DNA from: a virus
Lineage: Duplodnaviria > Caudoviricetes
Reading direction: 5' to 3' (one strand)
IMG/VR virus record: IMGVR_UViG_3300046780_000292
Coordinates: 1 to 57,007 of that record
Length of the DNA: 57,007 nt
Positions within the stretch are counted from its first letter, which is position 1. Every line of letters starts with the position of its first letter. Position numbers and translations under genes: made by a program. The notes beneath the pieces are model-generated. The model saw only the letters and a program-made list of their open reading frames with translations, made no database searches and was not told where the DNA came from. Of this stretch, positions 1-55,871 are shown in pieces.

Positions 1-194
1 GGCGGCCAGCCGGTGCCACGCTTCAGCAAGGTGTGCTGCGGGAGGGGCATCATCGCGGACTGAATGGTGACGACCGTCTGCTTCGTCGACTGGCCGGCCG
101 AGCCTTCGCCGCGCAGATACGAGTTGTACGTGTGGTACGAGCTGCCCGTGTACGACTTGATCGCGGACTTCTGCTCCGCCGACCACTTGATCCC
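1..194 (+). repeat. Terminal direct repeat, left copy (circular-assembly overlap)
   Basis: Identical to 56814-57007 except C95 vs T56908; lies in the middle of a CDS. Confidence 0.95.
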
Positions 195-3100
195 GTTGGC
201 CTTCATGTAGGCGTCCTGGGCTTCCTGCGCCTGGCTAGCGTTGGCGGCGTGGAATGCCGACGCGGGCAGGCTTTCGTCGTGCGGGCCCGGCCCGGCGAGC
301 TTCTGCACCTTCTGGCCGGGCTCCAGCGTCACACCCTTGGGCAGGTCGATCTCGCCGGACAGCTGCTTGACGACCTTGCTGTCGGGGGTGGAGTGGGCTT
401 CCGCGTACTGCTTGCCTGCGGCGGTGCCGAGCCAGTCGGTGATCTTCTTGTGGAGCATGCCGGAGTTGCCGACGCCCAGGTTCTTCGAGTGGGTCTCGTC
501 GATGGTCTTGAGGACCTGGTCGACGGACAGCCCGTCAGAGACGGTCTTGCCGTGTGCGGCGGCCAGGTTGACGAGGTTGCCGAAGATGTCCTCGGCCGGG
601 TCGGCGAGGTACTTGCCGGAGGGCATGGCCTTGAAGTCGCTGGTGATCTGCTTCTTCAGGGGGGTGGGGATGTGGGCGATCGAGGAGTCCCCGCCGCCGA
701 GCTTTACTGGTTCGGCCGGGCCAGCGTTTTCGATCTTGGAAGTTGATGAGGCCGAACTGGGAGAACCCAGCTTCTCCGCCTTCTTCTCCGACGCCGTCTG
801 GTGCACGACGGCATGCTTCGGGCCGACCTTCGCCACCATGTAGTGCTTCGCCGTGTGCGCCTTGCCGTAGTTCGGGCCGGAGTAGCCGGAGGTCTTGTAG
901 TAGCCGGACTCGGCGGCTGCCGCCTTGACGGCCGGGGCGTCCAGCTTCGGCAGGGACCGCTTCTTCAGCCCCACATCCGTGCGGATCTTGTCGAGGCGGG
1001 CCTGCGCCTCCTTGTGCACCGAGGCCGCCTTCGACTCCAGGACCTGCCGGTGCATGACCGCGTTCAGCCAAGCCTTCTTCTCCGGACCGGCCAGCTCGAA
1101 ACCGGTCTCCGGGTCGGTGGGGACGTTCAGCTTCGCCGTGTGCTCCTGCGCGTGCGCGGTCGCGAGCATCCCGGACAGGGCCTTCAGGTCCCCGAGGTTC
1201 TGCGTCAACGGCGCGTACTCGGGGTGGGCCTTCATGTCCTGCTTCTGGGCGTACGTCTTCACCCCGTACAGGACAGCCTTGCTGGCGTGGTCGGACCACG
1301 CCTTCGAGTAGGACTCGCCGATGGTGGCGACGTCGTAGTCGGACAGCTTGATCGGCTCGGCGGGCGTCTCGGTTGCCGTCTTCGCTGCGGCGTGGAACTG
1401 GGCCTCCGCTTTGTCGAGCTTCTCCGTGGTCTGCGTCAGGGTCGTGTCGAGGTACCCGTGGGACTGCTTGACCAGCTGGATGTGCTTGACGATGACCTTC
1501 TGGTCCTGCGGGGTCAGCTTCGCGCCGGTGATGCTGTGCCCGGAGTCGGCGATGGCCAGGTGGTGCTTCTCGAAGTGCTCGAAAAGCTTCTTCTTGTTCT
1601 CCAGGGTGGCGTAGTGCTGCGTGGACGAGTTGACGAGGCCCTGGTACTTCGCGGAGATGGCAGGCGAGGATGCTTCGAGGCCCGGGTACTCCTTCAGCAG
1701 GGCGGCGGCGTACGCCTTGCCCTTCACGTTGGCGTCTTTGACCTCGGTGAGGCTGAGGTTCACCTTCGGGTTGACGCCTGCCTCGCCGAGCAGCTCCTTG
1801 GCCCGGTCGGCGATCTGCGCGTTGCTCATGTCGGCGACGGCTGGCGCGTTGGCCTTCTTCAGCCCGGCGTGCACGGCGTCGTCGAGCTGCTTCTTCGCCA
1901 GGGTGGCGGCGTCCTGAAGCTGGGTGAGGTGTTCGGGGCTGGTGTCGACCGGGTGTGTGAGCAGGTGCTGCCGGTACTTGATCAGGAACGCCTTCTCGAC
2001 GGGACTGATGTCCGGGTCGGCCAGCTTGGCGTTGACCTTGTTGAACGCCTTCTCCTTGGCGTTCTTGACGGCGTAGGCGTGCAGGTTGGCGGTGGCCACC
2101 TGCTCGAAGTGCTGGATGGCCGCGAAGACTTCAGGCTGCTTGAGCACGGAGGCGGGCGCGCCCTTGGTGCTGATCTCCGCGAGGGTCTTGGCGGTGACTG
2201 CGGCGTTCTGCGCGAGTTCTGCCGAGTCGGGGTTTTCCGTGAGGTCGGCGGCCTTCTTCGCGACGAGGTAGGTCGAGAAGACGCCGGTATTGGCGGCCAG
2301 CTCCTTGGCCTGGGCCTGGGTGACGGAGTGGTCGTGCAGGTGGGTGGAGATCCCGATTTTCGCCGGGGGTGCGGCCTTGTCGGCCGGGCCGTGAAGGGCG
2401 ACCTGCTCGTTCTTGCCCAGGTGGATGCTCGCGCCGCCCGGCGGCTTGATGACGTAGTGGCCGGTGCCGGATCCGATGCCGGTGACCTGGGAGAGCTGGG
2501 CGTGCTTGTCGGAGTCCTCGAAGCCGATGACGTGTTCGACGCCGCCGTGGCTGATCTTCACCAGGCCGTGCTTCTGGATCTCCGTGACGAGACCCTTCGG
2601 CGTCACGTGGGTGACAGCTGCTTCCGGGGTGAGCTTCTCGGCCTCGGTCGTGTGAGCCTTGGCCAGGCCGCCCTTGAACTTCTGGAGCAGCTCCTTGGTG
2701 GCGGCGATCTTCTTCGGGTCGAGGAACTTCGTCGTGCCCTTGGCCAGCTCCGCGACGATCTTGGACTGGATGTCGGGGGGCAGCGCCGCGTACTCCTCGG
2801 CGGACAGCTTCTGGTAGGCGGCCAGGTGGTTCTTCGACCAGGTCGCGCCGGGGGCCTCGCCCTTGGCCATGGCGATGGCTTCCTGGACGTGCTTGGGAAG
2901 GTCCTTCGGCTTCTCGCTGGCGGGGATCTTCGCGCTGGTGTGCACGGCCGTGGCCGGGGTGGCGATGTCCGACAGCTTCGCCGGTTCGACCTTCTTGCCG
3001 TTCTCGTGCTTGGTGACCGGCAGCGCTCCGACGACCTTGAAGCCGTTCTGCTTCTGCGAGCTGGTCAGCGGGGTGGCGAGGGCATTGGCCTCGGACTTGT

Positions 3101-4610
3101 GGAAGCCCCACACGACGACCGGCCCGTCGTGGCCCTTCTGGACCAGGCTGGCGTGCGTGTAGTCGGCGGTGCTGGTGCGGGTGATGGTCTCCCCGTTGTG
3201 CACCACCGTGTAGGTGTGCTTCGGCTTGGCGGCGGTCGTCTTGACCTTCTCGCCGAGCGATTCCGTCTTGGGCGGCTCGGGCGCGGCAGCCTTGGCGGCG
3301 GCCTTCTCGATGCCCTCCTTGACGTTGCCCGACTTCGCCTTCTCGTGGTGGGCGACCATCTTCGCGACCAGCGGGGGAAGGCCCGGCTTGCCTTCCTTGA
3401 TGTGGTCGGCGATCTCCTTGTGGAACTCGCCGATGCCGACGCCGTTCGCGCCGTGGCCGAGGCCGGGCATCTGGTCGGCGTGGGCCTGCTTGAGGGCGGC
3501 CTGCGCGTAGGCGTTGACCATGGCCTTGAACGCCTGGTGGTCTTCGACGGTCCCCTTGGCCTTCATCTTGTCGAAGGCGTCCTGGAACATCGCGGTGCCG
3601 CTGGCCTTCTTGACGCCGGGGATGGCGTCGTTGATGGCCACGGCTGCTTCGGCCTGCGCCTGGCTGGTGACCTTGGTCGGTGACGGGTGCGTGGTGGGCG
3701 GGTTTTCCAGGTCCTTGAGGGTGACCTTCTGGTAGACCTTGCCGCTCGGCGCGGTGATGGTGTCGGGCTTCTCGGCGAGCTTGGTCAGCAGGTCGTCGGC
3801 CTTCTTCTGCTGCGGCCCGAACCCATCCTTTTTGATCTTGAGCAGTTCGCCCCGGATCACGGCCTTGTCATCGTGCGACAGCCCGTTCCACTGCTCCGGG
3901 GTGATCGCGGCGGCCTTGTCGAGCTTGTACTGCGGGGTGACCTTCTCCTGGGCGATGACGAACGCGATGCCCTTCGACATCACCGTCGGCTTCTTGCCCT
4001 TCGGGCCCTTCTCCCCGCTGTTCTGCGGGATCGCCTTGACGGCCTGCCCCAGGCTGATCTTGCCGGGCTCCTTGACGTGCACACCGGCAGCGTCGGAGAC
4101 GGCCTTACCAGCAGCGTGGGCCTCGCCGGTGGCGGCGTTGGCGGTCTTGCCCGCGTTCGGGTGCTGCTTGGCGACGATCGGCTGGAGCAGCTTGTGGGGG
4201 ATCGGCTTGCCCTGGGCCTTGAGGGCTTCGATCTTCTTGATGCGGGTGTGGTTGGCCTTCTCGACGCGGGCGGCTTCCAGGGCGTGCCAGGCGGCCGGGG
4301 AGACGGAGTGCAGCGTGCCCTTCCAGCCTTTGCAGGGTCCGGGGTGCAGCGGGTTCAGGCAGGCGGTGAGGGTGCAGGTGTCGTGGGCGTCGTCGTCCTG
4401 GTGGATGGCGGCGAGGACGGTGGAGGCGATGTTCTCCGGGTTGTAACCGAGCCTGGCATCAACGGCACCGGCAGCGGCGATCAGGGAGCAGACCTGCTTG
4501 ACCGGCTCCAGGGCTTCCTGATCGATGGTCGCCTTGACGAAGAGGGTGGCCTTGCCGTTGCCCTTAGGACCCGGCGTGAAGTCGATCTTGACCAGGTCTT
4601 TCAGCTCCAT
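1..4610 (-). CDS. Giant (~1,635 aa) Lys/Ala/His-rich protein with a C-terminal VIP2-like ADP-ribosyltransferase; 5' part, continuing across the junction to the stop at 56516
   Basis: ATG at 4610 (MELKDLVKIDF...). I read the frame open to position 1, and it joins in frame (4908 nt total) to the 56516-56866 ORF. Motifs: KSYTGSSYHTYNSYLRG, LKRG, FVSTT, ENEMLL. Confidence 0.9.
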   Translation of the reverse strand, partial: MELKDLVKIDFTPGPKGNGKATLFVKATIDQEALEPVKQVCSLIAAAGAVDARLGYNPENIASTVLAAIHQDDDAHDTCTLTACLNPLHPGPCKGWKGTLHSVSPAAWHALEAARVEKANHTRIKKIEALKAQGKPIPHKLLQPIVAKQHPNAGKTANAATGEAHAAGKAVSDAAGVHVKEPGKISLGQAVKAIPQNSGEKGPKGKKPTVMSKGIAFVIAQEKVTPQYKLDKAAAITPEQWNGLSHDDKAVIRGELLKIKKDGFGPQQKKADDLLTKLAEKPDTITAPSGKVYQKVTLKDLENPPTTHPSPTKVTSQAQAEAAVAINDAIPGVKKASGTAMFQDAFDKMKAKGTVEDHQAFKAMVNAYAQAALKQAHADQMPGLGHGANGVGIGEFHKEIADHIKEGKPGLPPLVAKMVAHHEKAKSGNVKEGIEKAAAKAAAPEPPKTESLGEKVKTTAAKPKHTYTVVHNGETITRTSTADYTHASLVQKGHDGPVVVWGFHKSEANALATPLTSSQKQNGFKVVGALPVTKHENGKKVEPAKLSDIATPATAVHTSAKIPASEKPKDLPKHVQEAIAMAKGEAPGATWSKNHLAAYQKLSAEEYAALPPDIQSKIVAELAKGTTKFLDPKKIAATKELLQKFKGGLAKAHTTEAEKLTPEAAVTHVTPKGLVTEIQKHGLVKISHGGVEHVIGFEDSDKHAQLSQVTGIGSGTGHYVIKPPGGASIHLGKNEQVALHGPADKAAPPAKIGISTHLHDHSVTQAQAKELAANTGVFSTYLVAKKAADLTENPDSAELAQNAAVTAKTLAEISTKGAPASVLKQPEVFAAIQHFEQVATANLHAYAVKNAKEKAFNKVNAKLADPDISPVEKAFLIKYRQHLLTHPVDTSPEHLTQLQDAATLAKKQLDDAVHAGLKKANAPAVADMSNAQIADRAKELLGEAGVNPKVNLSLTEVKDANVKGKAYAAALLKEYPGLEASSPAISAKYQGLVNSSTQHYATLENKKKLFEHFEKHHLAIADSGHSITGAKLTPQDQKVIVKHIQLVKQSHGYLDTTLTQTTEKLDKAEAQFHAAAKTATETPAEPIKLSDYDVATIGESYSKAWSDHASKAVLYGVKTYAQKQDMKAHPEYAPLTQNLGDLKALSGMLATAHAQEHTAKLNVPTDPETGFELAGPEKKAWLNAVMHRQVLESKAASVHKEAQARLDKIRTDVGLKKRSLPKLDAPAVKAAAAESGYYKTSGYSGPNYGKAHTAKHYMVAKVGPKHAVVHQTASEKKAEKLGSPSSASSTSKIENAGPAEPVKLGGGDSSIAHIPTPLKKQITSDFKAMPSGKYLADPAEDIFGNLVNLAAAHGKTVSDGLSVDQVLKTIDETHSKNLGVGNSGMLHKKITDWLGTAAGKQYAEAHSTPDSKVVKQLSGEIDLPKGVTLEPGQKVQKLAGPGPHDESLPASAFHAANASQAQEAQDAYMKANGIKWSAEQKSAIKSYTGSSYHTYNSYLRGEGSAGQSTKQTVVTIQSAMMPLPQHTLLKRGTGWP

Positions 4611-4674
4611 GCGGGCATCCTACGCGATCGTTTTCGATCATGAGCCTGTCCCGCGCCGTCCCGTCTTGTCCCGC

Positions 4675-6081
4675 CTAGGCCCGGCCCGCATCCTTCAGCG
4701 TCTTGTTCTCGGCCGCCTTGTGCTGCGCGGCAGCCTTCGCGGCCTTCGCCTTGTGATACGCAGCCCGCTGCGACTTCGACATCTTCGACATCTTCGCCTG
4801 CTCCCGGCGGCGGGCCAGGATCGCATCGGCGCGCTTGCCGAGCGAGTCCTTCTTCCGCTGGTCCCGGTCACGCTGGCGCTGGGCGCGCCGGTCCAGGACG
4901 TCCTGCTGCCGGGTGTCCTGGACGCCGGTCCGCTGCGCCTTCACGTTGTCGCGGGCGGCCTGCTTCAGCGTCTGCTGATGCTTGCCGAGCGCCTTCGCGT
5001 AGTCCCGGACGGCGCGGCGGGCCATGGCCGCCAGCTTCGGGTTGGAGACGGCGTTCTGGGTGGCGACGGCCTGCGCCTGGGCGATGGCCGTGGACAGGCC
5101 CTTGACGGCCACCTGCGCCTTCACGGCCGGGTTCTGCTTGGTGGCGTCCTGCTGGCCGGGTTCGGTCTGCCCGCGCTTCTGGCCCTTGCACAGGCCCGGC
5201 TTGTGGGTCTGCATGCAGAACTGCCCGTCGGTGCACACCTCCTGCATGAGGGTGATCGAGGCGGTCATGTTCTTGTAGCCCCGGTTCTCCATGCTGGTCG
5301 GCTCGCCTTCGACCTCCAGCAGCATGGTGCAGCGGCAGTTGATGACCTCCTGCGGCGGGCCTTCCGGGTCGTGCGGGTACATCATGGCGAAGCCGCCGAC
5401 GTCGAAGGGCTGCCCCCACGGGACGGTCTGCCCGTCGGCCTTCACATGGTCGGGGCGGGTGCGGTGGTCCTCGGTGGCCAGCCAGCGCTTCACGTACGAG
5501 GTGTCCGGGTCGCTCTCGACGAGCATGGAGAAGGCGTCGTACAGCCCACCGTTGTAAGCGCCGACGACCTCGGTTCGTGCAACGGTGCGGGCCCGGTCCT
5601 TCCACTTCTTGGCGTCGGTGGCGTCGAACAGGGCTTCGACCTGGGCGGTGACGTCGGGGATGCTAGCCCCGTTCGTGGTGGCGGAGTCGATGATTTGGGC
5701 GACCGCGCCGTACACCTCGTCGGGGACGGCCTTGAGCCGGTTTTCGCGGGCGGCGATCCAGTTGCGGACGAACGGGCGGGAGTTGAACAGGGTGCCGTCA
5801 CCCAGCAGGTCCTTGTATGGCGAAGCAAGCACTTCGCGGGCGACATCCTCGGAGTACTTGTCGGCGAGGGCGTCCCACTTCGGGGTCTGCGAGAACACCG
5901 ACATGGGGTCGGGGACGAGGCCGAGCTTCGCGACGCCTCCGGCGAACATGGCCGCCTTCACGGCGGCCAGCCACTCGACCATCATCTCCAGGTAAGCCTC
6001 ATACAGGGGCGGCTCGTACTGGGCGAACACTTCGACGGCGGCCTGCTTCTGCGCGGCGGCGTCAGGTAGTTGCTGCGGCAC
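4675..6081 (-). CDS. MuF-like (SPP1 gp7) minor head protein with a Cys/His motif and a basic C-terminal extension
   Basis: ARTE, KRWLATEDHRTRPDH, YPHDP..EVINCRC motifs; located downstream of the portal. Confidence 0.9.
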   Translation of the reverse strand: MPQQLPDAAAQKQAAVEVFAQYEPPLYEAYLEMMVEWLAAVKAAMFAGGVAKLGLVPDPMSVFSQTPKWDALADKYSEDVAREVLASPYKDLLGDGTLFNSRPFVRNWIAARENRLKAVPDEVYGAVAQIIDSATTNGASIPDVTAQVEALFDATDAKKWKDRARTVARTEVVGAYNGGLYDAFSMLVESDPDTSYVKRWLATEDHRTRPDHVKADGQTVPWGQPFDVGGFAMMYPHDPEGPPQEVINCRCTMLLEVEGEPTSMENRGYKNMTASITLMQEVCTDGQFCMQTHKPGLCKGQKRGQTEPGQQDATKQNPAVKAQVAVKGLSTAIAQAQAVATQNAVSNPKLAAMARRAVRDYAKALGKHQQTLKQAARDNVKAQRTGVQDTRQQDVLDRRAQRQRDRDQRKKDSLGKRADAILARRREQAKMSKMSKSQRAAYHKAKAAKAAAQHKAAENKTLKDAGRA

Positions 6082-6084
6082 GCT

Positions 6085-6348
6085 TCACCCCCACAATCCG
6101 AGCCGCCAGGAGGCGGCGGCGACGGCGACGTCTACGAGCGAGCAGCAGGCCAACAGGGTGAGGATCGTTCGGCATCCTGCGCTCGTCATTACTCTCTGTA
6201 CTAGATCGCGGGTGCTGGGCCGGGAATCAGGGCACCCGTACTCGCGAGTAACCCTCTTTGTCCCGTATGTCGTTACGCTGCGTGGAACCTCGGGACCAGG
6301 GATGACCGGCACCAGGAGCGGCGCGGCGTGCCTGCCGACGTACATCAC
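6085..6348 (-). CDS. Hypothetical protein, possibly membrane-associated
   Basis: Coupled to the upstream ORF; hydrophobic C-terminus. Confidence 0.4.
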   Translation of the reverse strand: MMYVGRHAAPLLVPVIPGPEVPRSVTTYGTKRVTREYGCPDSRPSTRDLVQRVMTSAGCRTILTLLACCSLVDVAVAAASWRLGLWG

Positions 6349-6521
6349 AACTCGCTCGCCGTCTGACGCATCTCGCGCAGCGCCCGGAAGGCGTCACCCA
6401 GGGAGTAGTCGCCGTCCTCCTCGATCTGGTCGGCCCAGTAGATCAGCCGACTTTTGAGGGTCTGGATGGTGGCTTCCTGTTCGCGCAGATTGTCGCGCAT
6501 CTCCGCGTCGTTTTCGATCAT
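6345..6521 (-). CDS. Hypothetical 58-aa protein (MIENDAEMRDN...)
   Basis: ATGA overlap with the portal stop; read manually. Confidence 0.6.
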   Translation of the reverse strand: MIENDAEMRDNLREQEATIQTLKSRLIYWADQIEEDGDYSLGDAFRALREMRQTASEL

Positions 6522-8473
6522 GGTGCGAGTCCGCCCCGAGCATGATGCAGGGTCGCCTTCAGCAGCTCCGAGTCGTGGACGACACCCCGGGTCAGCAGCT
6601 CCGTGCAGTACCCGCCCAGCAACTCCTCCATGGCGTCAGGGTCGACGCCCAGCATGGGGGCCTGGTCACGGATGTGGGTCCACGCACCGGCCAGCAGAGC
6701 AGGTGCGCGCTTCTGGTCCGGAACGACCCGGGTGTGCAACTCATGTTTCGGCACCGAATACCGGGCGCGCTGCGGGCCGGGCACGAGACGCCCACCGGCG
6801 ATCTCCATGGCCCGGCGTACAGCACTGTCGGCGGCGTAGAACACCTGCGTGTCGAACAGGTCGGAGCTGATCGCGGCGGCGAGCGCGCCGAGCTTCTGCT
6901 TCTTGGGCGGGCCGACGTTGCCTGCTTCGGCGTCGGCGACCGACGGGAACTGCGGCAGCCCCTTGGCCCCGGCGTCGGCGGGTTCGGTTCCGGCGGTGTC
7001 GTAGCCGGGGTCTCCGGGCATCAGGTCGCCAGGCTGGGCTGGCGGGGCCGGTGGTGCGGGGAGGCTGATCCTCGGCAGGCCGAGGATCTTCTGTACCTCG
7101 GGGTCACCGGCGTAGGCGGGCTGGGCCAGCACGAGCGCCTTGACCAGGTTGTACTCCAGCTCCTTCGCGTCGGGGGCGTCGTCGTCGGTGAAGGCGGCGT
7201 TGTCGCGGGCCGCCTTGGCGCTGATGTACTCCTTCTCCGCGTACTGGAGGGCCTGGTCGGAGCGGTTGGGGCGGACGGCGAGGGCGGCGATGTCGAACCA
7301 GAGGGTTTTCTTCTCCGGGTCTTTGACGCCTGCGGCTTTGAGGGCGGGCTGGAAGTAGCCGATGTTGAGGGCGTCGGCGAGCTGGATAAGCAGCGGCTCG
7401 ATGTGGATCTTGATCGAGGATTCCTCGATCTGCCACCCCGACCAGTGGTTCGTGCCGCCCATACCCGTCAGCACCTCGGGCGGAATGTCCAGGCTCATCG
7501 CCATCCGCCGGACGGCCGCCTCACGCATCGCCGTGATGTGCTCGGAGATCTGCGAGTCGAACGTCAGATGCTTGATCTTGTCGAGGGCATCGACCGCCAC
7601 CTGCAAGATGATCGGCACGATCGCGGCGGCGTTGTCGCGCTGCTGCAACGACGTCGCCATCGTCTGCTGCAACAGCTGCGAGAAACCCTCGATACCGGTC
7701 GGCTGCGGGTCACCCGGATTGGCCTGCGGCTGACGCGGGAAGTCGATATTGTCGGGCAGCAGCAGGATCCCGGCACCGGCCAGACGCGAATCCAGCTCGG
7801 CGAACACCCGCTTGGTGCACTGCTCCAGCTCCCGCAGCACCGGCAGGATGGCCCGGACGGTGGAGTCGGCGGCATCGTGGCGGCGGGGGTGCGGATTCCA
7901 GCAGCGGATCAGCAGGTCCTTCGCCGCGTCCAGCTTGTAGTTGCCGCCCCCGTGGGTGATGGACCGGCGCACCATGATGTCGTCGCCCCGGCGGAACACC
8001 TCCGACGAGGAGCACACATACCACTTGTCGGTGCCCCCGCCCGGGTCGGCGGTCGACTTGTAGCCCTCGGCGACGATGAACACGTCCCCGGCGGTCATCA
8101 TGTTGATGCCCATGAGCCGCTGCGCCTGGGCTTTCGCGGCGGGACTGCCGAACATGGTTTCGGCGATCAGCTTGGCCTGGTCGTCGGTGGTCTCGTCGCC
8201 TACGGTGCCGTCGTCGGCGATGTCGGCCGCGTACATGCGGCACCGGGAGATGGCGTTGCCGATCCAGTTGACGACGAACCGCATCTCACCGCAGATGTCG
8301 TAGTGCCGCCAGGCTTCCCACTGCCAGCGGTGGTCGCCGAGCTTGAACATCTGCCAGGAGGCGGCGTCACCCAGGTTGATGGGGACGGCGGCGGCCAGCA
8401 GCGCGTTGGCGGGGCGTGTCCCGGGGCCGTCGATACCTCCGGCGGGCTTGGTTTTGCGGGTCAACAGCCCCAC
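6518..8473 (-). CDS. Portal protein
   Basis: 651 aa; WQWEAWRHYD, WNPHP, SRLAGAGILLLP, NHWSGWQI motifs typical of actinophage portals. Confidence 0.9.
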   Translation of the reverse strand: MGLLTRKTKPAGGIDGPGTRPANALLAAAVPINLGDAASWQMFKLGDHRWQWEAWRHYDICGEMRFVVNWIGNAISRCRMYAADIADDGTVGDETTDDQAKLIAETMFGSPAAKAQAQRLMGINMMTAGDVFIVAEGYKSTADPGGGTDKWYVCSSSEVFRRGDDIMVRRSITHGGGNYKLDAAKDLLIRCWNPHPRRHDAADSTVRAILPVLRELEQCTKRVFAELDSRLAGAGILLLPDNIDFPRQPQANPGDPQPTGIEGFSQLLQQTMATSLQQRDNAAAIVPIILQVAVDALDKIKHLTFDSQISEHITAMREAAVRRMAMSLDIPPEVLTGMGGTNHWSGWQIEESSIKIHIEPLLIQLADALNIGYFQPALKAAGVKDPEKKTLWFDIAALAVRPNRSDQALQYAEKEYISAKAARDNAAFTDDDAPDAKELEYNLVKALVLAQPAYAGDPEVQKILGLPRISLPAPPAPPAQPGDLMPGDPGYDTAGTEPADAGAKGLPQFPSVADAEAGNVGPPKKQKLGALAAAISSDLFDTQVFYAADSAVRRAMEIAGGRLVPGPQRARYSVPKHELHTRVVPDQKRAPALLAGAWTHIRDQAPMLGVDPDAMEELLGGYCTELLTRGVVHDSELLKATLHHARGGLAP

Positions 8474-8477
8474 TCGG

Positions 8478-8786
8478 TCACCCCTTCACACGGCCCAGCG
8501 CACCGGCCGTAGCAGACATGGCCAGTCCGAGGGCGGGCACGAACAGCCACGGCGTTTGGCCGTAAGCGTAGATCACGGGGGCGGCGGGGATGGCCAGCCA
8601 GATGGACATGCACCAGGGGCACAGCATCAGGTAGGCGAGACGCTGGTGTTTGCGTTCGACGAGGGCTTCCACGAACGGGTCGCGGATGGGCGCGGTGATG
8701 GTGTCGGAGGTTATGAGCAGCACGACGCGGGCGAACGCCAGCAGGTAGATCACGTATAAGACAGAAGAGCCGGGCATGGCCACCAT
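8478..8786 (-). CDS. DUF1360-like membrane protein
   Basis: Transmembrane helices, D.ITAP.R and CPWC.S.W motifs; sits just upstream of the portal. Confidence 0.75.
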   Translation of the reverse strand: MVAMPGSSVLYVIYLLAFARVVLLITSDTITAPIRDPFVEALVERKHQRLAYLMLCPWCMSIWLAIPAAPVIYAYGQTPWLFVPALGLAMSATAGALGRVKG

Positions 8787-8829
8787 CGTAGGTGGTCAGC
8801 CCGGCTCTTCGGGTGTACGGGGAGCTAGG

Positions 8830-9573
8830 TCAGTAGACCTCGTCGTCGTCCGGGTCGTCGTCGTCCTCGACCTCGGGCTTCTCGTCGAACTGCGGCTCGC
8901 CCATCTCCTCGGCCGTCACGACCCAGTCGGAGGACTTGCCCAGCTTCGCGGCGACCGCGGCGGCCAGGGCGACGACGTCGTCGCCCTCGAACACCTGCAC
9001 GGCGACCTTGGTGGTACCGGACACAGGGACGGTGACGGTGTGGTTGACACGGGCGGGCAGCTTCTCCAGACCGGCGTTCTCCAGGAACGCCTGCGCGTCC
9101 TGGTAGCCCCAGCCCTGCTCGGTGACGCCCTCCTTGAGCATGTTGCGGATGCCGTCCTTCAGACCGGCGAGTCCGGGGATGGAGTCGTTGGCCTCGGGGG
9201 CGTCGGCGGGGCCGGAGAAGAAGACGGGCTCGGCGGTCGTCTTGACGTGGTAGACGTTGTCGTACTGGTCGCTGTAGATGTTGATCTTTCCGGCGGCCAG
9301 GACCCGGGACAGCTCCTGCTGGAACAGCTCCAGGGCCTCCGCGCGGGTGTGGGCGGAGATGCGGCGGCCGTAGTCGCCGGTGATCGCCACACTGACCCGG
9401 TACTCGGAGCGGCTGGTGATCGGGTCGGCGCCGAGCTGGACCAGGCGGGTGTTGACCCAGTCGCGGTCGACGCCGCTGTACTTGGCGGCCGACTTGGCGG
9501 CCTGGGTAAGGGCCTTGCGCAGGTCGTTGGCCTGAGTCGCCTCGGTGTAGGCGTCCTTGTCGCTGGTGTCCAT
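8830..9573 (-). CDS. Hypothetical protein with an acidic tail
   Basis: 247 aa, GGAGG SD, typical codon bias, upstream promoter. Confidence 0.8.
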   Translation of the reverse strand: MDTSDKDAYTEATQANDLRKALTQAAKSAAKYSGVDRDWVNTRLVQLGADPITSRSEYRVSVAITGDYGRRISAHTRAEALELFQQELSRVLAAGKINIYSDQYDNVYHVKTTAEPVFFSGPADAPEANDSIPGLAGLKDGIRNMLKEGVTEQGWGYQDAQAFLENAGLEKLPARVNHTVTVPVSGTTKVAVQVFEGDDVVALAAAVAAKLGKSSDWVVTAEEMGEPQFDEKPEVEDDDDPDDDEVY

Positions 9574-14068: not shown

Positions 14069-15487
14069 CTAGTACGGGGAGCTGACCGGCATGAAGCTGT
14101 CGAGGGCCGGGGCTGCGATGCGGATCAGCTTCGACTCTCCGCCCAGCAGGTACAGCTCGGCCTGCACGAGGGCGTCGATCCGGTCGGGGCTTTCCGCCTC
14201 ACCTGGTACCCAGGTGCATTGCTGGTCCTCCAGCTCGACGAACGTGCCGACGTGGTGGATGCGGCCTTGCTCGTAGCGGGCGGCGACCGGTTCGGCGCGC
14301 AGGCGTTTACCGGCGAGGCTGGTGACTTCCTTGATGGGTGCAGGGCCGGGCGGGAACAGTCCGGCGGCCTGCATCGTCTTGTAGGCGTCGGACAGGACGG
14401 TGGTCAGCCACTTCTTGCCCATGTTGGTTTCGACGACCAGCCAGGTGGCGCCGTGGGTGAGGAACACTTCCCAGGCGAGGCGGGCGGCGGGGGCTCCGAC
14501 GATCTTGCGGCTGAAGTCGGCGAGGACGTAGCCCTGTTCCTGGTAGTCGTGGGCGTAGACGATCAGGCCGGTTTCGTCGCTGGAGCCGGAGGCGCCGGGG
14601 TCGATGGAGACGACGGTCTGTTTGAGGGCGGGCAGCTCGGACGGCTTTATGCGATTGTTTTCGATCATGGGGCGCTTCCACAGCGCACCCTCGATGTCCT
14701 CCAGCAACTGCCCGTACAGCTCCTGGAGCCCGGCCCGGGTGCCCTCGTAGATCTTGCGCATTTCCTCGACGACTTCGCGGGAAAGGTTCGCGATGTTGTC
14801 AAACAGGGAGCCGGTGGTGATGACGATCGTGCCGTCGGTTTCGTGCTGCCACTTGATCAGCAGCTTGATGGGCTTCGGGGTGGTGGTGACCACGGCGCGG
14901 GGGCGGTCGCCGATCAGCGGGGCGCGCAGCGACGGCAAGATGCCCTCGTACCAGGCGTCGTACGTGTAGCGCCACTTGGCCAGCTCGTCCAGCCACGCCC
15001 CGGCGGCGTTGTAGCCACGGCCCACGTCGGAGTTGTCGGCGCCCTCGAAGTAGATGAGCTGCCCGGTCTTCAGCTCGATCATCAGCTTCGGGGACTTGCG
15101 GTACTCGAAGTCCTTGCCCTTTTCGTAGCCCATCCGGCGCAGCACGGACAGCAGGCCGGAGTTTCCCTCGATGCAGGCGGTGCGGCAGTCGTTGAGGGTT
15201 TCGGCAATGACCAGCCATTCGGTGCGCTGCCCAAAAGCGTCCACGGGGTGCTTGAAGACGCGGTCGAGGAGGTCCTCAGCACCGGTGCGCGTTTTCCCCC
15301 AGCCTCGGCCGGAGCGGATGAGCCAGACCAGCCAGTCGCCGGGCGGCTTGAACTGCTCGGGACGACCGACCCACCACCAGGCGCCTTTCTGGATCTGGTC
15401 CAGGGTGTCGGGGGTCTGCTGCTTGAGCCAGTTGCGGCGCAGTTGCGGCGGCAGCAGGGCGAGCTTCTGGGCGGCGGACAGACTCAT
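14069..15487 (-). CDS. terL: Terminase large subunit
   Basis: GRGWGKTR Walker A, WLDELA Walker B, IDPG...DETG and SPDRIDA nuclease motifs. Confidence 0.95.
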   Translation of the reverse strand: MSLSAAQKLALLPPQLRRNWLKQQTPDTLDQIQKGAWWWVGRPEQFKPPGDWLVWLIRSGRGWGKTRTGAEDLLDRVFKHPVDAFGQRTEWLVIAETLNDCRTACIEGNSGLLSVLRRMGYEKGKDFEYRKSPKLMIELKTGQLIYFEGADNSDVGRGYNAAGAWLDELAKWRYTYDAWYEGILPSLRAPLIGDRPRAVVTTTPKPIKLLIKWQHETDGTIVITTGSLFDNIANLSREVVEEMRKIYEGTRAGLQELYGQLLEDIEGALWKRPMIENNRIKPSELPALKQTVVSIDPGASGSSDETGLIVYAHDYQEQGYVLADFSRKIVGAPAARLAWEVFLTHGATWLVVETNMGKKWLTTVLSDAYKTMQAAGLFPPGPAPIKEVTSLAGKRLRAEPVAARYEQGRIHHVGTFVELEDQQCTWVPGEAESPDRIDALVQAELYLLGGESKLIRIAAPALDSFMPVSSPY

Positions 15488-15496
15488 GATCGAAAA

Positions 15497-44785: not shown

Positions 44786-46648
44786 TTACGGGTTGGTCGG
44801 GAACAGGCCCTGGGTGAGGACCGTCGACTGCGCGTTGAGCGCGTAGGCACCCGCGCCGTCCGGGATCAGGCCGCCACCGATGTTGCCGATGGTGTAGACG
44901 CGGCTGTCGAAGCAGGTCTTGGCCGCCAGGATGCCCTGCTCGGTGAACAGCTGGGTGGTCTTGTTCTGCGCCAGCAGGGTGCTGTCGTAGACGGTGTCGA
45001 GGGTGATGATGTCGGCGTTGCCACGCACCCAGGTACCGGCCGCGTACAGCAGGAACTGCATGGTGTGCGGGAAGTCCTGCACGAAGTCGGTGGACGTCGA
45101 GGACTGGCCGAACTGCTGCCAGGCCGACGGCGCGCCGGTCGGGTAGGCCGCCCAGTAGTAGGCGTCCTGCCAGTCGTAGATCCACTGGACGCGGGCACCG
45201 CGCACGGCGAGCCAGGAGTTGATGCGCTCCATGGTCAGGTTGAACTGGTCGGTGGTCGCGTCGCTGTCGTAGAAGTTCTTACGCGCGATGTCGGACCGGA
45301 TCCAGGCCAGCGCCCAGTATGGGAACACGACTTCCAGGGTGGCGTTGAGCGACATCCGCTGGCGGTACTTGTAGTCCATGATCGCCATGTCCATGGCGGT
45401 CAGCAGGGTCGTGACCACGGAGTGGTCGGTGGCCCAGGTGGTGCCAGCGCCGGGGGTGTGGCTGGTGGTGCCGCTCGGCAGGGCGAGGGCGGTCGAGCCG
45501 GTCACCAGGGCGTTGATCATGAACTGGTTGATCTTGTGGGTGTGCGCGACCATCGCACCCCGCACGAACCGGGCGATCAGCTCCGGGTAACCCCGCAACT
45601 GAAGCAGGTCCGTCTGAATCGCCAGACCGTCCGCCTCCAGGCGGGTGTCCGTGAACGACGGGCACGGCACCGGCATCGTCGGCTTCGTGACACCCGAGAT
45701 GATCTGCGCCTCGGTGTAGTGGAAGTACCCCGAGCCGGTGTAGATCGAAGAGAAGTCCGGGCCGGTCGTGTACTTGATGCCACCCCGCGAAACGTTGATC
45801 TCCGGAATGTCCAGCAGGCCGTCCGACGACTCCAGCTCACACAGGTCATAGATGACCTCCGACGGGGCACACCAGCCCGTACCGGCCGCCGTCAGCGAGT
45901 TCGGCGCACCGGCCGCCTGAGCCTGCTTGCGCTTGATGTCCACCGACGCCAGCAGCGAGCCGCCCGGCAGGCGGGACTCCTTCGACGCGAACTCGATGAC
46001 CCGCGTCGCGTCCTCCTGGAGGCCACCCGACGCGGTCAGCTCCTTCGGGTACTCCAGCTTGAACTGCGCGATCGGGTCACGCCGCGAACCACCGGCACCA
46101 CCGAACGCCGAGTACTGGAGGAACCGCTTCTCGACCGCCGCGCCGACCTTGTCCCAGTTCAGCTCCTCGCCGACCTGGAAGTCGGAGTTGTTGGCCCCGG
46201 CGAGGATGACGGCGGGTGCCTGACGCGGCACAGCGTCGGTCGGAACGGCGGCAGGGGCAGTCTGGGAGGCCACCTCGGCGACACCCGGCGTCGCAGGCTT
46301 GGCAGCTGCGGCAGTGGTGGTCGCGGGGGCAGGCGTCTCCACGGTGCCCTCGGGGGCGTCCGGCTCGTCGGTGTCGTCATCGTCGCCGAGGCTGTCGGAG
46401 AGGGCGGCGAAGGCACCAGCCGCGCCACTGCGGCGGCTGCGCTCCTCGTCGACACCCTTGGTGATGGTGGTCAGCTCGCGCATCGTCGCGATGTCGTCGG
46501 CGGTGACGTCGGAGACGTCCATGTCCGCGTATCCGGCGGCTGCGTCGCGGACCTGCGAGCGGATCGAAGTCAGGTCTTCCGTGGAGAGCGTGGAGAAGGC
46601 GTAGGAGCCGTCCTCGTTCTTCGGAACCTGGAAGGGCAGGTTAGGCAC
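44786..46648 (-). CDS. Major capsid (hexamer) protein with a scaffold-like N-terminus
   Basis: SLTAAG.GWCAPSE..YDLC, DG..D.PE...RGG, YDS..L..N....LFTE motifs. Confidence 0.9.
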   Translation of the reverse strand: MPNLPFQVPKNEDGSYAFSTLSTEDLTSIRSQVRDAAAGYADMDVSDVTADDIATMRELTTITKGVDEERSRRSGAAGAFAALSDSLGDDDDTDEPDAPEGTVETPAPATTTAAAAKPATPGVAEVASQTAPAAVPTDAVPRQAPAVILAGANNSDFQVGEELNWDKVGAAVEKRFLQYSAFGGAGGSRRDPIAQFKLEYPKELTASGGLQEDATRVIEFASKESRLPGGSLLASVDIKRKQAQAAGAPNSLTAAGTGWCAPSEVIYDLCELESSDGLLDIPEINVSRGGIKYTTGPDFSSIYTGSGYFHYTEAQIISGVTKPTMPVPCPSFTDTRLEADGLAIQTDLLQLRGYPELIARFVRGAMVAHTHKINQFMINALVTGSTALALPSGTTSHTPGAGTTWATDHSVVTTLLTAMDMAIMDYKYRQRMSLNATLEVVFPYWALAWIRSDIARKNFYDSDATTDQFNLTMERINSWLAVRGARVQWIYDWQDAYYWAAYPTGAPSAWQQFGQSSTSTDFVQDFPHTMQFLLYAAGTWVRGNADIITLDTVYDSTLLAQNKTTQLFTEQGILAAKTCFDSRVYTIGNIGGGLIPDGAGAYALNAQSTVLTQGLFPTNP

Positions 46649-46757
46649 TGCGGTCTCTCTTCAACTTCGAGCGCTCGGCCGGACCGTGGCAGCACCGATA
46701 CACCTGGCCGCGATCATAGCGGGTACCCTGCGCTTTACGGAGGAGGAGGCCGTAAAC

Positions 46758-48455
46758 ATGTCGGAAACTCATGATCATTTCACGCCTGATGCGTTGGACG
46801 AGAGCATCAGGCTGGCCGAGGTAATCGGTGCAAAACTTCACCTCGACCGGGCCGTCAACCCGCGCGCCGGAGAGAAGGTGTGCATCGGCACCCCACACCT
46901 CAACGAGGCGGGCTGGAACTACGTCGAGTCACTCTGGCGGATGGCCGCCTACGACAAGGCCCACGGGAACCACCTGCTGCACAACTCCGGGCTGATGAAC
47001 AACGGCTCGTTCTGCCCCGTCTGGGGCCGCTCCATGGAGCTGTCGCACGCCCGCAACACCGCGACCGCCGCGTTCCTGTCCAGCGAATCGGACTGGCTGC
47101 TCTGGATCGACTCCGACATCGGCTTCGAGCAGGACGCCCTGGAGAAGCTGCTGGACCGCGCCCATCCCGACACCGCGCCGATCGTCGGCGGGCTGTGCTT
47201 CATCGAAGGCGACTACACGCACGACATGCGCGGCGGGCTGCGCTCCAGCCTCGCCCCCACCCTGTACGACTGGGCCTGGGTCGAGCCGAAGAACGGCATG
47301 CCCGGCGCGTACAAGATGGTCACCCGCTCGTCATGGCCGGAGGACATCGCAACCCGGGTCGGGGCGACCGGCTGCGGCCTGCTGCTGACCCACCGGTCCG
47401 TCTACGAGAAGATCTCCTACTGGCTGCGGGAGCAGGGCGCACCCCCGCACATCTGGTTCGACCGGATTCCCGGCCCCGACGGTGAGCTGTGCGGCGAGGA
47501 CGTGTCGTTCTGCCTGCGCGCCCACCAGGTGGATCTGCCGGTCCTCGTGCACACGGGCGTGACCACCACCCACCAGAAGACGATCTGGTACGGGGTGCCG
47601 GAGTACAAGGCGAAGCCGTTCACGCCGCCCGCGTCGAACCTGCTGCTGCTGCCCCCGGACCAGTGGCCGAAGCTGATGATCAACCAGAACGCCGTCGAGC
47701 AGGCCGCCCGCAACTCCCCCATGGGCGAGAAGCAGGTTCCGGAGACCACCGAAGAGGTGGCCATCATCGTGCCAGTCGCGCAGCGGAACAACAGCGCCAC
47801 GTTCCTGGAGAGCCTCGAAGCGTCCCTCACGGAGCAGCAGCGCCGGACCGTGGCCGTATACGTGATGACCGACGAGGACGACGACCACACCGAGCAGTCC
47901 TGGTACCTCGCGTCGCTCGATCACCACCTGACAACGGCCATCGACCACCACCGTTATCCGCGCCCGATGGGTTCCTTCGCCGAGAAGGTGAACCGGGGCT
48001 ACGAAACCTCCTGGCAGCCGTGGATCTTCCTGGTCGGCGACGATGTCCGCTTCCACAAGGGCTGGCTGGACCACGCGATGGAGACGGCCAGGTCCACGGG
48101 CAAGGCCGTGATCGGCACCAACGACCTGGGCAACCCGGCGGTCATGGCCGGGACGCACGCGACCCACATGTTCATCCGCCGTGACTACGTCGACATCGAG
48201 GGCGCGTCGTGGGACGGTCCGGGCGTCGTCTGCCACGAGGGATACCGGCACTGGTTCGTTGACGACGAGATCGTCAACGTGGCGAAGATCCGCGACCAGT
48301 GGGCCCCGAGTCTGTCGTCTCACGTCGAGCATCTGCACCCGTACTGGGGCAAGGCCGAGCGGGACAAGGTGTACGCCATCGGCGCGGCGGCGGCGGACGG
48401 TGACGCGGGCCTTTGGGCGGAGCGGGTGCGGCAGTACGCAGGAGGAGAGTCATGA
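46758..48455 (+). CDS. Tandem-domain GT-A glycosyltransferase
   Basis: ARN..WIDSD, G.G.LL.HR, GED..FC; second domain IIVP, K.N.G, GDD, H.F.DDE, H.HP. Confidence 0.85.
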   Translation: MSETHDHFTPDALDESIRLAEVIGAKLHLDRAVNPRAGEKVCIGTPHLNEAGWNYVESLWRMAAYDKAHGNHLLHNSGLMNNGSFCPVWGRSMELSHARNTATAAFLSSESDWLLWIDSDIGFEQDALEKLLDRAHPDTAPIVGGLCFIEGDYTHDMRGGLRSSLAPTLYDWAWVEPKNGMPGAYKMVTRSSWPEDIATRVGATGCGLLLTHRSVYEKISYWLREQGAPPHIWFDRIPGPDGELCGEDVSFCLRAHQVDLPVLVHTGVTTTHQKTIWYGVPEYKAKPFTPPASNLLLLPPDQWPKLMINQNAVEQAARNSPMGEKQVPETTEEVAIIVPVAQRNNSATFLESLEASLTEQQRRTVAVYVMTDEDDDHTEQSWYLASLDHHLTTAIDHHRYPRPMGSFAEKVNRGYETSWQPWIFLVGDDVRFHKGWLDHAMETARSTGKAVIGTNDLGNPAVMAGTHATHMFIRRDYVDIEGASWDGPGVVCHEGYRHWFVDDEIVNVAKIRDQWAPSLSSHVEHLHPYWGKAERDKVYAIGAAAADGDAGLWAERVRQYAGGES

Positions 48456-49102
48456 TCGAAAACGAGAGGCAGTTGCCAGTCAAGCTGCACCCCTTCCCGC
48501 ATCTGGTGGCGGACGGGCTGTTCCACGACAGCATCCTGGAGAACGTCCTGAAGGAGTTCCCCGCGCCCGACGCGGCAGGCTGGCGTTCGTTCTCCAACAG
48601 TACGGAGCGGAAGCTGGAAGGCAGCAGCCCGCGCATGTGGGGGGTGGCCACAACGCTGGTCCTGCGTCAGATGGAGCTTCAGGCCCCCGGTCTGGCGAAG
48701 GCGTTCGGTACGCCGCCGCTGACGATGGAGACGACCGGCGGGGGCTACCACCTGATCGAGCCGGGCGGCTACCTGGCGATGCACGCCGACTTCTCCCGCT
48801 CCCCCGCGACCGGCCTGTACCGGTGGCTGAACATGCTGGTCTACCTCAACCATGACTGGGATGAGGAGGGCGGCTGCCTTCAGCTCTGGGACGACGACGG
48901 CCCGGCCGTCACGGTCGCACCGCAGTTCAACCGGACCGTCGTGTTCCGCACCTCCGGATCGTCGTGGCATGGGCATCCCGTGCCGAACACCCGGCCGCGC
49001 CGTTCGGTGGCCGCCTACTTCTACGCCTCGGAGCCGCCGCCCGGCTATGCGGGTGACCACTCGACCCGCTGGCACCCGAAGGCGGGGCAGCCCGGTGCAT
49101 GA
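48452..49102 (+). CDS. 2OG-Fe(II) oxygenase (prolyl-hydroxylase-like)
   Basis: PFPH...D, GGG.H, H-A-D, YLN..W...GG.L.LW, FNR.V.F, SWHG, R.S...Y. Confidence 0.9.
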   Translation: MIENERQLPVKLHPFPHLVADGLFHDSILENVLKEFPAPDAAGWRSFSNSTERKLEGSSPRMWGVATTLVLRQMELQAPGLAKAFGTPPLTMETTGGGYHLIEPGGYLAMHADFSRSPATGLYRWLNMLVYLNHDWDEEGGCLQLWDDDGPAVTVAPQFNRTVVFRTSGSSWHGHPVPNTRPRRSVAAYFYASEPPPGYAGDHSTRWHPKAGQPGA

Positions 49103-54009: not shown

Positions 54010-55158
54010 TCAGCGGTGCGTAGCGGCCGTCAGCTTGGCGGTCAGACCGTCCAGCTCGTTCCGGTACTCCAGGTTGCCGATCCAGTGCGACGGGAACGCC
54101 TTCAGCCCGTACGCGGCACCCGCCAGAGCGCCCGTGATCGAGGCGATGCTGTCCGAGTCGCCGTCGGTGAACGCGGCCCGCCGGAGGGCGTTGGTCGGGT
54201 CGTCGGGGAAGCACAGCAGGGTGTGCAGGGAAGCGGCAAGGGCCTCTTCGGCGATCCAGCCGCCCCCGGCCACGTCGCACGGGTCCTGCTCCTGCTTGCG
54301 GGGCCGGTCGTAGATGCCCAGCAGGGCGTCGATGACTTCGTCCCAGCCCCGGTTGATGTACTCCTTCGGGGACCGGGCGGCAGCCCTGGAAGGCATGGGC
54401 AGCGGGGGAAGCTCAGCAAGGGTCAGCCCTGCCGCGTCCTCCCACCAGTTCATCCGGCGGGCGGCCAGCGGCTTCGGCTTGAAGACCGGCTGCGGCGGGA
54501 CTGCCTCCCAGATGTGGCCGAGCCACTCACCGTGGTACGTGTCGCGCTGGTCGTAGGCGTAGGCCAGCAGGTGGTCGAGCAGTGTCTCTCCGGGCTGGGC
54601 GAAGCCCTCCAGCAGCATCCGGACGGCGACGGCGGTCAGCTCTGCGGCGGCCAGGGCGGTGGGGTGGCCGTGGGTGATGGCGGCCTGGAGCTGTGCGGCC
54701 CCGGCCAGCTGCGCCCAGGTCCAGTCGGTGCGCAACGCCAGGGGGGCGACGCGCATGTTGGCCCCGTTGCCCTTGGAGTTGGGGCGTGACGCGAGCTGCC
54801 ACTGTGCCGGGTTGCGCTGGAGCGAGGAGACGGCCCCCATGCAGGTGCTGCCGGGGGCCCGCTTGCCGTCGGTGCTCTTGGGGTCACGCTGCCAGGCGAT
54901 GAACTCCATCACGAACTGGTAGGTGAGGTTTTCGGGGGTGGGCTTGCCGAGGGCGGCCTTGGCGACGGCGATGGACATCTGGGTGTCGTCGGTGACGATG
55001 CCCTGCTGGGGCCGGTTGAGGCCGACCTGCTTGCGGAAGGGGGTGCCGAACTTGGCGATGGCGCTGGCCTTCATGAACTCGGTGGGGCGGCCGAGGGCGT
55101 CGCCGTAGGCGAGGCCGAACATGATGCCTTTGCGGCGGTCGGCGGTCGGGTTCTTCAT
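54010..55158 (-). CDS. ADP-ribosylglycohydrolase (DraG/ARH family)
   Basis: G.A.GDALG.P.EF, TDDTQM, GNGA.MR..P, TH, GDSDS.A...GAL.GA metal-binding motifs are intact. Confidence 0.95.
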   Translation of the reverse strand: MKNPTADRRKGIMFGLAYGDALGRPTEFMKASAIAKFGTPFRKQVGLNRPQQGIVTDDTQMSIAVAKAALGKPTPENLTYQFVMEFIAWQRDPKSTDGKRAPGSTCMGAVSSLQRNPAQWQLASRPNSKGNGANMRVAPLALRTDWTWAQLAGAAQLQAAITHGHPTALAAAELTAVAVRMLLEGFAQPGETLLDHLLAYAYDQRDTYHGEWLGHIWEAVPPQPVFKPKPLAARRMNWWEDAAGLTLAELPPLPMPSRAAARSPKEYINRGWDEVIDALLGIYDRPRKQEQDPCDVAGGGWIAEEALAASLHTLLCFPDDPTNALRRAAFTDGDSDSIASITGALAGAAYGLKAFPSHWIGNLEYRNELDGLTAKLTAATHR

Positions 55159-55850: not shown

Positions 55851-55871
55851 GATGTCCTCCTCGGGACGCAG

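Follow-up and report, generated by a model that had tools for sequence, protein, structure and literature searches.

Phage-encoded ADP-ribosyltransferases (ARTs) carried in the virion are the closest described counterparts of the locus considered here. In the accessible text of two earlier studies, ART and NUDIX domains fused to MuF are proposed to be loaded into the phage head (PMC5576092, PMC9503650), and Alt of phage T4 is presented as a packaged and injected arginine ART (PMC9503650). Head-packaged ARTs are predicted to be widespread, and few have been tested. The present analysis concerns a giant gene in IMG/VR virus record IMGVR_UViG_3300046780_000292 (Duplodnaviria; Caudoviricetes), the whole of which (57,007 b; GC content 67.2%) was analyzed and is referred to below as the window, with (-) and (+) marking the strand of each feature. 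This gene crosses the ends of the window and encodes a protein of 1,635 residues that ends in an ART domain. We consider it probable, if only by a little, that the product is a head-packaged, injected, arginine-specific ART held on an arginine-free tether and accompanied by an antidote resembling DraG and Tri1, in an uncultured soil actinophage.

A giant gene ending in an ADP-ribosyltransferase domain

Comparison of the window ends revealed a terminal overlap in which positions 1 to 194 repeat positions 56814 to 57007 at 99% identity, the sole mismatch being C at position 95 against T at position 56908, equivalent to Gly/Ser at residue 1506. Codons 1 to 1536 of the giant gene occupy positions 3 to 4610 (-), beginning with an ATG at 4610 that is preceded at 7 nt by AGGA and remaining open at the window start. 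Codons 1473 to 1635 and the stop codon occupy positions 56516 to 57007 (-), a stretch of 163 residues that is open at the window end and holds the whole catalytic ART domain (R1500, R1531, S1561-T-T, E1601-N-E1603); 64 identical residues are encoded by both ends. Since the ends repeat each other, a plain end-to-end circular join is out of frame and yields 1,584 residues, with the frame lost after ...KRGTGWP and a stop at 56863. Collapsing the overlap gives a circle of 56,813 b with a single open reading frame (ORF) of exactly 1,635 residues, from 4610 (-) to the stop at 56516-56518. A preliminary description of this DNA, made from the sequence alone, had announced an ORF of this length across the junction and proposed that the contig be rotated and translated; that operation returns the same product, in a continuous frame once the 194-b overlap is collapsed and with a frameshift under a plain join, and the translation contains every motif quoted there (YNSYLRG, KRG, FVSTT, ENE).

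The record is classed as linear (CheckV completeness 100) and its end copies differ at one base, features that would fit a junction-spanning ORF that is an assembly artifact or a dead gene. This explanation is scarcely credible when set against several further findings. Firstly, database protein P0002 is letter for letter the 1,635-residue product and is encoded unbroken on a separate contig of 22,519 b. Secondly, 112 long homologs have intact catalytic residues. Thirdly, GC content by codon position over the entire frame is 0.63/0.43/0.94, the last value being that of third positions, and matches that of the other genes of this 67% GC genome. Among public sequencing runs, a 22,519-b Logan contig of run X1 spans window positions 55800-57007 at its own positions 289-1496 and continues past the window end; run X1 is possibly the source sample, so that its contig counts as a second assembly and not as a second sample. 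In run X2, from a different sample and study, a contig of 791 b spans positions 56428-57007 and extends 211 b further. The runs carrying window sequence are soil, rhizosphere and root metagenomes. The single mismatch in the overlap probably explains why the end repeats of the record were left unclassed.

Across 80 related viral loci (L004-L083), the contig breaks off within the giant gene in 36, and the window shows the same feature. Assemblies may thus be prone to break inside the giant gene, perhaps through strain variation, with the window overlap representing a Gly/Ser polymorphism. The largest gene of a phage can be hidden when a circular contig is linearized.

The last 163 residues of the protein (56519-57007, -) match PF03496 with 76.9 bits against a gathering cut-off of 23.4 (E 1.7e-21; profile positions 17-184 of 196) and match phrog_3895 with an E value of 1.6e-24. 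By sequence, the best match in the PDB is Lmo0066 (8za7_B, 3e-9), and Vip2, C2-I, CDTa, iota Ia, Vis and C3 are matched as well. When the domain is aligned to Lmo0066 and Vip2, LLKRG falls on the catalytic Arg strand, FVSTT on the STS motif, and QENEML on EEAEVL and SEKEIL, which brings the catalytic residues R1531, S1561-T-T and E1601-N-E1603 into register with those of both proteins. By an alignment-based count over the 112 long ART-type relatives, the Arg and the Ser are each conserved in 112 and each Glu in 111, the lone Glu exception, P0165, having gaps at those columns of the alignment.

A fold model was made on the C-terminal 350 residues of the closest intact homolog, L024 (L024:4585-5634), which is 79.7% identical and stands in for the window protein. 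The alignment used comprised 49 rows, after removal of 13 of 62 rows with an identity to the first sequence below approximately 26%. The AlphaFold2 (AF2) model has a pLDDT of 90.3 and a pTM of 0.73. In a Foldseek search of the PDB its best match was again 8za7_B (E 8.8e-13, TMt 0.81), and further matches were many C3 structures (TMt ~0.7), Plx2A, Vip2, C2-I, iota and CDTa; the matches span approximately 200 columns, and the helical 170 residues ahead of the ART are unmatched. The C-terminal domain is a PF03496 family ART with R-S-ExE motifs, and a close homolog adopts the ART fold. The preliminary description had named a VIP2/C2-type R-S-ExE ART at this place and had considered that the claim would fall if the ART fold were missing; the profile match, the aligned motifs and the fold of the homolog all bear the assignment out.

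Depletion of arginine from the carrier

The ExE motif is the rule for arginine-acceptor ARTs. Modification of arginine by the window ART is suggested indirectly, by this motif together with the nearly arginine-free carrier on which the enzyme sits and a linked hydrolase that resembles DraG and Tri1. Only 15 of the 1,635 residues of the window protein are Arg (0.9%) and 11.4% are Lys. Among the other proteins of the same phage, eight of the larger ones (231-835 aa) contain 4.1-6.8% Arg and four small ones, d1 to d4, contain 4.2-9.5%; the Arg-poor ones are the major tail protein (1.7%) and one more (3.2%). The relatives of the giant protein divide along the same line according to the enzyme they carry: Arg amounts to 0.8-3.8% (median 1.2) in 112 long ART-type relatives and to 4.9-6.9% (median 5.5) in 57 NUDIX-type relatives, two ranges without overlap, while seven other family members contain 6.6-14.3%. 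The median of Lys plus Arg is 12.2% in the ART and NUDIX types alike, which indicates that charge is retained and only the guanidinium group avoided.

The same substitution is visible column by column. Over 260 well-aligned columns of the N-terminal domain shared by both types, Arg makes up 1.36% in the ART type and 4.52% in the NUDIX type, and Arg predominates in 11 columns of the NUDIX type, of which the ART type retains it in three. In each of seven ART/NUDIX pairs, there are 6-14 columns with Arg in the NUDIX type opposite Lys in the ART type, against 0-1 with the opposite arrangement. On an N-domain tree built with FastTree from 176 rows and 302 columns, the ART/NUDIX label switches at least 17 times, and in every one of the ten independent pairs available on supported branches, the ART member is the one low in Arg (sign test, p 0.002). 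Together, the repeated label changes and the ten concordant pairs argue that Arg depletion was not one inherited event. Nor does it appear to be an effect of the genome, as ART and NUDIX loci are similar in the median Arg content of MuF (7.3 vs 7.8%) and of the portal protein (6.8 vs 6.4%) and in locus GC (66.8 vs 68.9%).

The arginines that are left are themselves conserved. For eleven of the 15 in the window protein, at least half of 66 close relatives also have Arg in the same column, and five of these eleven are invariant or nearly so; R123, R1210, R1218 and the catalytic R1531 are invariant among these 66. R1210 and R1218 (window ~957-981, -) lie within ...IRTDVGLKKRSLPK..., an otherwise arginine-free region, and this segment could be a cleavage or binding site.

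An ART tethered to a very long polypeptide would face the arginines of its own carrier as cis-substrates at very high local concentration. We infer from this that such arginine deserts may be a repeated answer to the tethering of an arginine-specific ART to a long polypeptide, with NUDIX-to-ART swaps replacing Arg by Lys at constant charge, a generalization to which we assign somewhat less than an even chance. If it holds, the composition of its carrier could reveal which residue an uncharacterized ART modifies.

Several observations weigh against this account. The ExE motif is a general rule and not proof of an arginine acceptor, and ART folds can also be those of NAD+ glycohydrolases (NADases). 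The FastTree tree rests on 302 columns that themselves carry the Arg/Lys signal. Furthermore, short ExE ART proteins of 444-653 aa that share the HPGPCKGW motif of the family have normal Arg (5.3-8.3%), as do two short MuF-ART fusions of cultured phages (471 and 683 aa; 7.2 and 5.1%). The window enzyme might be an NADase, or a modifier of nucleic acids or small molecules, with the loss of Arg explained by, for example, Lys-specific DNA contacts in the head or resistance to Arg-proteases. NADases with an ART fold exist, as the accessible text of one study describes (PMC13285283), and the short fusions demonstrate that an ExE motif does not force depletion. We regard this alternative as quite unlikely, considering that depletion follows ART vs NUDIX in ten of ten independent pairs at constant Lys plus Arg, that the linked hydrolase is closest to arginine-ADP-ribose hydrolases, and that both Glu residues are kept in 111 of 112 relatives. 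With an arginine-specific ART still the favored reading, normal Arg in short fusions and low Arg in long ones suggest that the rule is limited to long carriers or to this ART subfamily.

Among four head-protein-ART fusions checked in cultured phages, the two long ones (1,129-1,179 aa), which come from unrelated phages, are Arg-poor and Lys-rich: prophiFSAT01-1 gp53 (L087) contains 2.3% Arg and 9.7% Lys, and the minor head protein of ZQG1 (L088) contains 3.5% Arg and 8.9% Lys.

An ART-linked ADP-ribosylglycohydrolase cassette

Downstream of the giant gene lies a group of genes that includes an ADP-ribosylglycohydrolase (ARH; 54010-55158, -; PF03747, E 1.1e-59). Its nearest solved relatives are DraG (3.7e-21) and Tri1 (4.4e-18), and ARH1, ARH3 and Lmo0067 also match. 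DraG and Tri1 are arginine-ADP-ribose hydrolases. The entry that is the best match of the ART, 8za7, is titled 'ART-ARH type toxin effector-immunity protein pair' in Foldseek, and its ARH chain is the Lmo0067 that matches the phage ARH; a literature search on Lmo0066 returned nothing on the ART-ARH pair.

Between the giant gene and the ARH gene lie two small genes of the same cassette, d1 (55911-56297, -), which has no known family and whose conserved start is probably Met18 (MKLGH), and d2 (55407-55850, -), which has a weak HTH_17 match below cut-off. In tblastn searches with the window ARH, a homolog was found 0.95-1.6 kb downstream and on the same strand in all 12 close ART-type loci with enough downstream sequence, and d1 and d2 accompany it in the same 12. 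At three of seven distant ART-type loci a homolog lies 3.6-4.3 kb downstream on the opposite strand. None of 14 NUDIX-type loci yielded an ARH homolog by tblastn; in NUDIX loci the head gene encoding a 672-aa protein follows the giant gene almost directly. A complex prediction for the ART domain with d1 (score 0.27, mark 0.32) says nothing either way.

This distribution is consistent with a role of the cassette as an antidote in the producer cell, where the hydrolase would strip ADP-ribose from arginines modified before packaging. The presence of such a cassette also has another possible meaning. ARH and the two small genes look co-transcribed with the giant gene, as in toxin-immunity modules, and a promoter-like site lies directly after the ART gene; these features, together with the indirect nature of the evidence for packaging, would fit a toxin or host-takeover enzyme that is made late, remains in the cytoplasm without ever being packaged, and works within the producing cell or in excluding superinfecting phages, its action timed or limited by ARH. 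Such a role appears unlikely in view of where the giant gene lies and how its product is built. MuF lies on one side of the gene and the protease-like and major head genes on the other, a constant N-terminal domain with swappable enzyme ends is the layout of a delivered effector, and an enzyme working at its site of synthesis would have little evident need of a 1,470-residue carrier.

The carrier family and its place in the head module

The N-terminal ~1,470 residues of the protein matched no Pfam or PHROG family, a search of the ESM Atlas with residues 750-1450 gave no usable match, and self-comparison of the whole protein revealed no internal repeats. The preliminary description had recognized no domain in approximately 1,400 N-terminal residues, and Pfam, PHROG, ESM Atlas and Foldseek likewise leave them without assignment. 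Relatives are nonetheless numerous: a search of a large protein collection found 131, of which 120 are among the matches listed, and 125 were found when residues 1-1200 were compared exhaustively with 1.84 billion representatives. Of the family proteins of at least 1,000 aa, an ART forms the end of 112, a NUDIX domain is present in 57 and seven have another domain or none; the contigs that encode them are typically 54-60 kb. The carriers are thus an uncultured soil-phage family in which a constant N-terminal domain is joined to swappable ART and NUDIX enzyme domains, an arrangement that by analogy is that of delivered polymorphic effectors.

The constant domain comprises residues ~41-290 (3741-4490, -), is common to the NUDIX-type relatives and is proposed to be a packaging or anchoring module. 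Within it, alignment identifies the invariant motif H76-x2-C79-x4-C84-x4-H89-PGP-C93-KGWK (residues 76-97; 4320-4385, -), in which H76, C79, C84, H89 and C93 are the same across the ART and NUDIX types (HxxCxxxxCxxxxHPGPCKGWK) and which is possibly metal-binding. A second module common to both types covers residues ~561-650 (2661-2930, -). Residues ~760-1635 occur in ART-type relatives only, and the part of this region ahead of the ART domain (residues ~760-1472; 195-2333, -) includes the helical pre-ART subdomain seen in the model (residues ~1300-1470). An AF2 model of the N-domain (residues 29-303, 66-row alignment) is mostly helical, with a pLDDT of 74.7 and a pTM of 0.36. A fold assignment for this domain was dropped, the best Foldseek match in BFVD having an E value of 0.08 and no TM above 0.19. 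The ~1,200-residue Lys/Ala-rich region that follows the N-domain has no recognized fold, and residues 304-1285 lie outside the models.

Several variations on this architecture were observed. A segment of ~70 residues (residues 465-535; window ~3006-3216, -) also stands alone in proteins of 69-546 aa in the representative library and therefore looks like a small mobile domain. Extra domains in the family include HipA_C (PF07804) with ART, PF20411 with ART, and a PI3/PI4-kinase-like stretch that replaces ART or NUDIX (P0114, P0014, P0021, P0142), the last being the case in P0142. In the short proteins of 444-653 aa, a distant ExE ART comes immediately after a CxxxxC...HPGPCKGW motif and ahead of a second Cys motif and a basic tail; their genes (L015:623-1972, L019:6708-8102, L056:3281-4615, L081:2769-4250; also proteins P0166 and P0200) seemingly lie just before a giant gene.

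The giant gene sits in a head module whose minus-strand order is large terminase (14072-15496), portal, MuF, giant gene, d1-d3, ARH, d4 and the 672-aa head gene, as assigned by PHROG and Pfam; a plus-strand island comes next, followed by the major head protein, adaptor, major tail protein, tape measure and tail proteins. The structural genes, including a protease-like gene before the major head gene, share one strand. The portal gene (6518-8473, -; phrog_776, E 6e-153) and the MuF-like head morphogenesis gene (4675-6081, -; PF04233, E 2.8e-13), which encodes a separate polypeptide of 468 aa, lie directly upstream of the giant gene on the same strand; the preliminary description had likewise placed the giant ORF right after portal and MuF. 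The next head gene after the inserted block is the 672-aa gene (51177-53195, -), which matches the part of phrog_859 that resembles Pas7 of phiAsp2. Actinoplanes phage phiAsp2 is the nearest cultured phage by portal (38% identity), and in it MuF is followed directly by Pas7, the counterpart of the 672-aa gene; this adjacency identifies the giant gene and its cassette as an insertion in the head module.

The bulk of the carrier invites a further explanation, in which the giant protein serves chiefly as a structural component, inside the head or in ejection, and the enzyme is an accessory and secondary part. The protein is long, Lys/Ala-rich and free of repeats, with a net charge of approximately +36; residues 304-1285 fall outside any model; and giant packaged proteins occur in other phages, among them P1 DarB and N4 vRNAP. 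A mainly structural role is nevertheless improbable, as phiAsp2 builds heads without a giant protein and the catalytic residues of the ART are strictly conserved.

Three observations concern neighboring genes. MuF matches positions 143-298 and the 672-aa protein positions 379-789 of the 807-position phrog_859 profile, which indicates that the two are one single protein in some phages, whereas in the window they are separated by the giant gene and its cassette. The plus-strand island within the minus-strand structural module (46605-49099, +) encodes a two-domain glycosyltransferase (616 aa) and a 2-oxoglutarate (2OG)-Fe(II) oxygenase (232 aa). A DUF1360 (PF07098) protein is encoded at 8478-8786 (-), immediately upstream of the portal gene.

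Proposed mechanism

Returning to the favored reading of a head-packaged and injected ART, the giant protein would be a large internal virion effector made late together with the head proteins. The constant N-domain (residues ~41-290) with its H-C-C-H-C motif may load it into the procapsid beside portal and MuF, and at infection the protein would exit the head along with the DNA, after which the C-terminal VIP2/C3-type R-S-ExE mono-ART could ADP-ribosylate arginines of host proteins. Packaging and injection are suggested here by gene position, by the constant N-domain with its exchangeable enzymes, and by analogy with MuF toxins and T4 Alt. In the carrier, Arg would have been replaced mostly by Lys until only conserved Arg was left, and d1, d2 and ARH would protect the producer cell; both the reason for the desert and the roles of these three genes are proposals.

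A second set of findings tempers this reading. With regard to the cassette, two pairs among the 12 close loci (L006/L007 and L022/L023) look like duplicates, and by tblastn four distant ART-type loci have no ARH within 2.6-6.8 kb downstream. With regard to the carrier, the label of packaging domain comes from position and constancy alone, given a low-confidence N-domain model without a structural match. A tblastn search of 50,697 phage records with the 1,536-aa part gave no match, and thus no cultured relative of the N-terminal part, and the N-domain, scanned against 185,579 species genomes, had a single weak match, in a Roseovarius metagenome-assembled genome, with no host clue and no sign of a prophage. 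A megablast search of the same phage records with window positions 1-9000 also gave no match.

If the generalization on arginine deserts holds, the giant carriers would make up a new class of effectors injected by phages, with a three-gene cassette dedicated to the antidote. One carrier that bears either ART or NUDIX constitutes a natural experiment, with a clean, charge-neutral loss of the presumed acceptor residue. Arg composition may thereby offer a sequence-only clue to residue specificity, and a testable idea of how tethered enzymes avoid self-modification. A literature search, whose coverage lay outside subscription journals, found no paper on arginine-depleted ART carriers.

Comparison with known systems

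The arginine desert has an analog in the lysine deserts of ubiquitin-system proteins, in which the surroundings of a modifying enzyme are purged of the acceptor residue; residue, chemistry and kingdom all differ, and the likeness is one of analogy only. At the level of the enzyme, the window ART shares the R-S-ExE catalytic core and fold of VIP2, C2-I, iota Ia, CDTa and the C3 exoenzymes. It differs from these in an identity of approximately 22-25% in fold alignments, in a pre-ART region that is helical and unmatched where binary toxins have an adaptor domain, and in presumed targets that are bacterial. The linkage of ART and ARH genes recalls Listeria Lmo0066/Lmo0067 (8za7), Serratia Tre1/Tri1 (6dre) and DraT/DraG (2woc). 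Those pairs are adjacent genes of bacterial secretion or regulatory systems, whereas here the pair belongs to the head module of a phage and is separated by two additional small genes.

Among phage proteins, the MuF toxins and ART-MuF fusions of actinophages, such as Microbacterium phage Alakazam gp6, are similar: the accessible text describes a VIP2-type ART, encoded just after the portal and followed by small genes, for which loading into the head and delivery along with the DNA are proposed (Jamet et al., 2017, PMC5576092). Unlike in those fusions, MuF at the present locus is a separate protein of 468 aa and the ART is borne on an unrelated carrier of 1,470 residues with its own conserved N-domain; the giant protein has no PF04233 or MuF PHROG match and, with MuF encoded by its own gene upstream, falls outside the definition of a MuF toxin. 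The carrier is, moreover, arginine-free, unlike Alakazam gp6 with 7.2% Arg. As with T4 Alt, a head-carried ART would act on host proteins at the start of infection, head carriage being a proposal here; unlike Alt, the protein is 2.4 times longer, of siphovirus-like actinophage origin and linked to a hydrolase. Stretches of 50-70 residues match the Alt-like families phrog_802 and phrog_26651 (E 4e-5 to 1.1e-4), and membership of the Alt family was rejected on account of these weak partial matches and the lack of full-length similarity. The polyvalent proteins of Iyer, Aravind and colleagues carry at least two effector domains per polypeptide; in the giant protein one enzyme domain was recognized, besides the segment of residues 465-535 that looks like a small mobile domain.

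The most general resemblance is to the head-associated NUDIX/ART phage proteins, for which the accessible text describes fusions of ART or NUDIX domains to head proteins, predicts their packaging, notes ARG/ARH domains as sporadic in actinophages, and contains no mention of arginine depletion or of ART/NUDIX alternation on one carrier family (PMC9503650). Taken together, a packaged phage ART encoded in the head module is already known, as far as the accessible portions of these sources describe it (PMC5576092, PMC9503650), and what the present locus adds is a carrier family with ART/NUDIX alternation, a repeated and charge-neutral purge of arginine, and an ART-specific d1-d2-ARH cassette.

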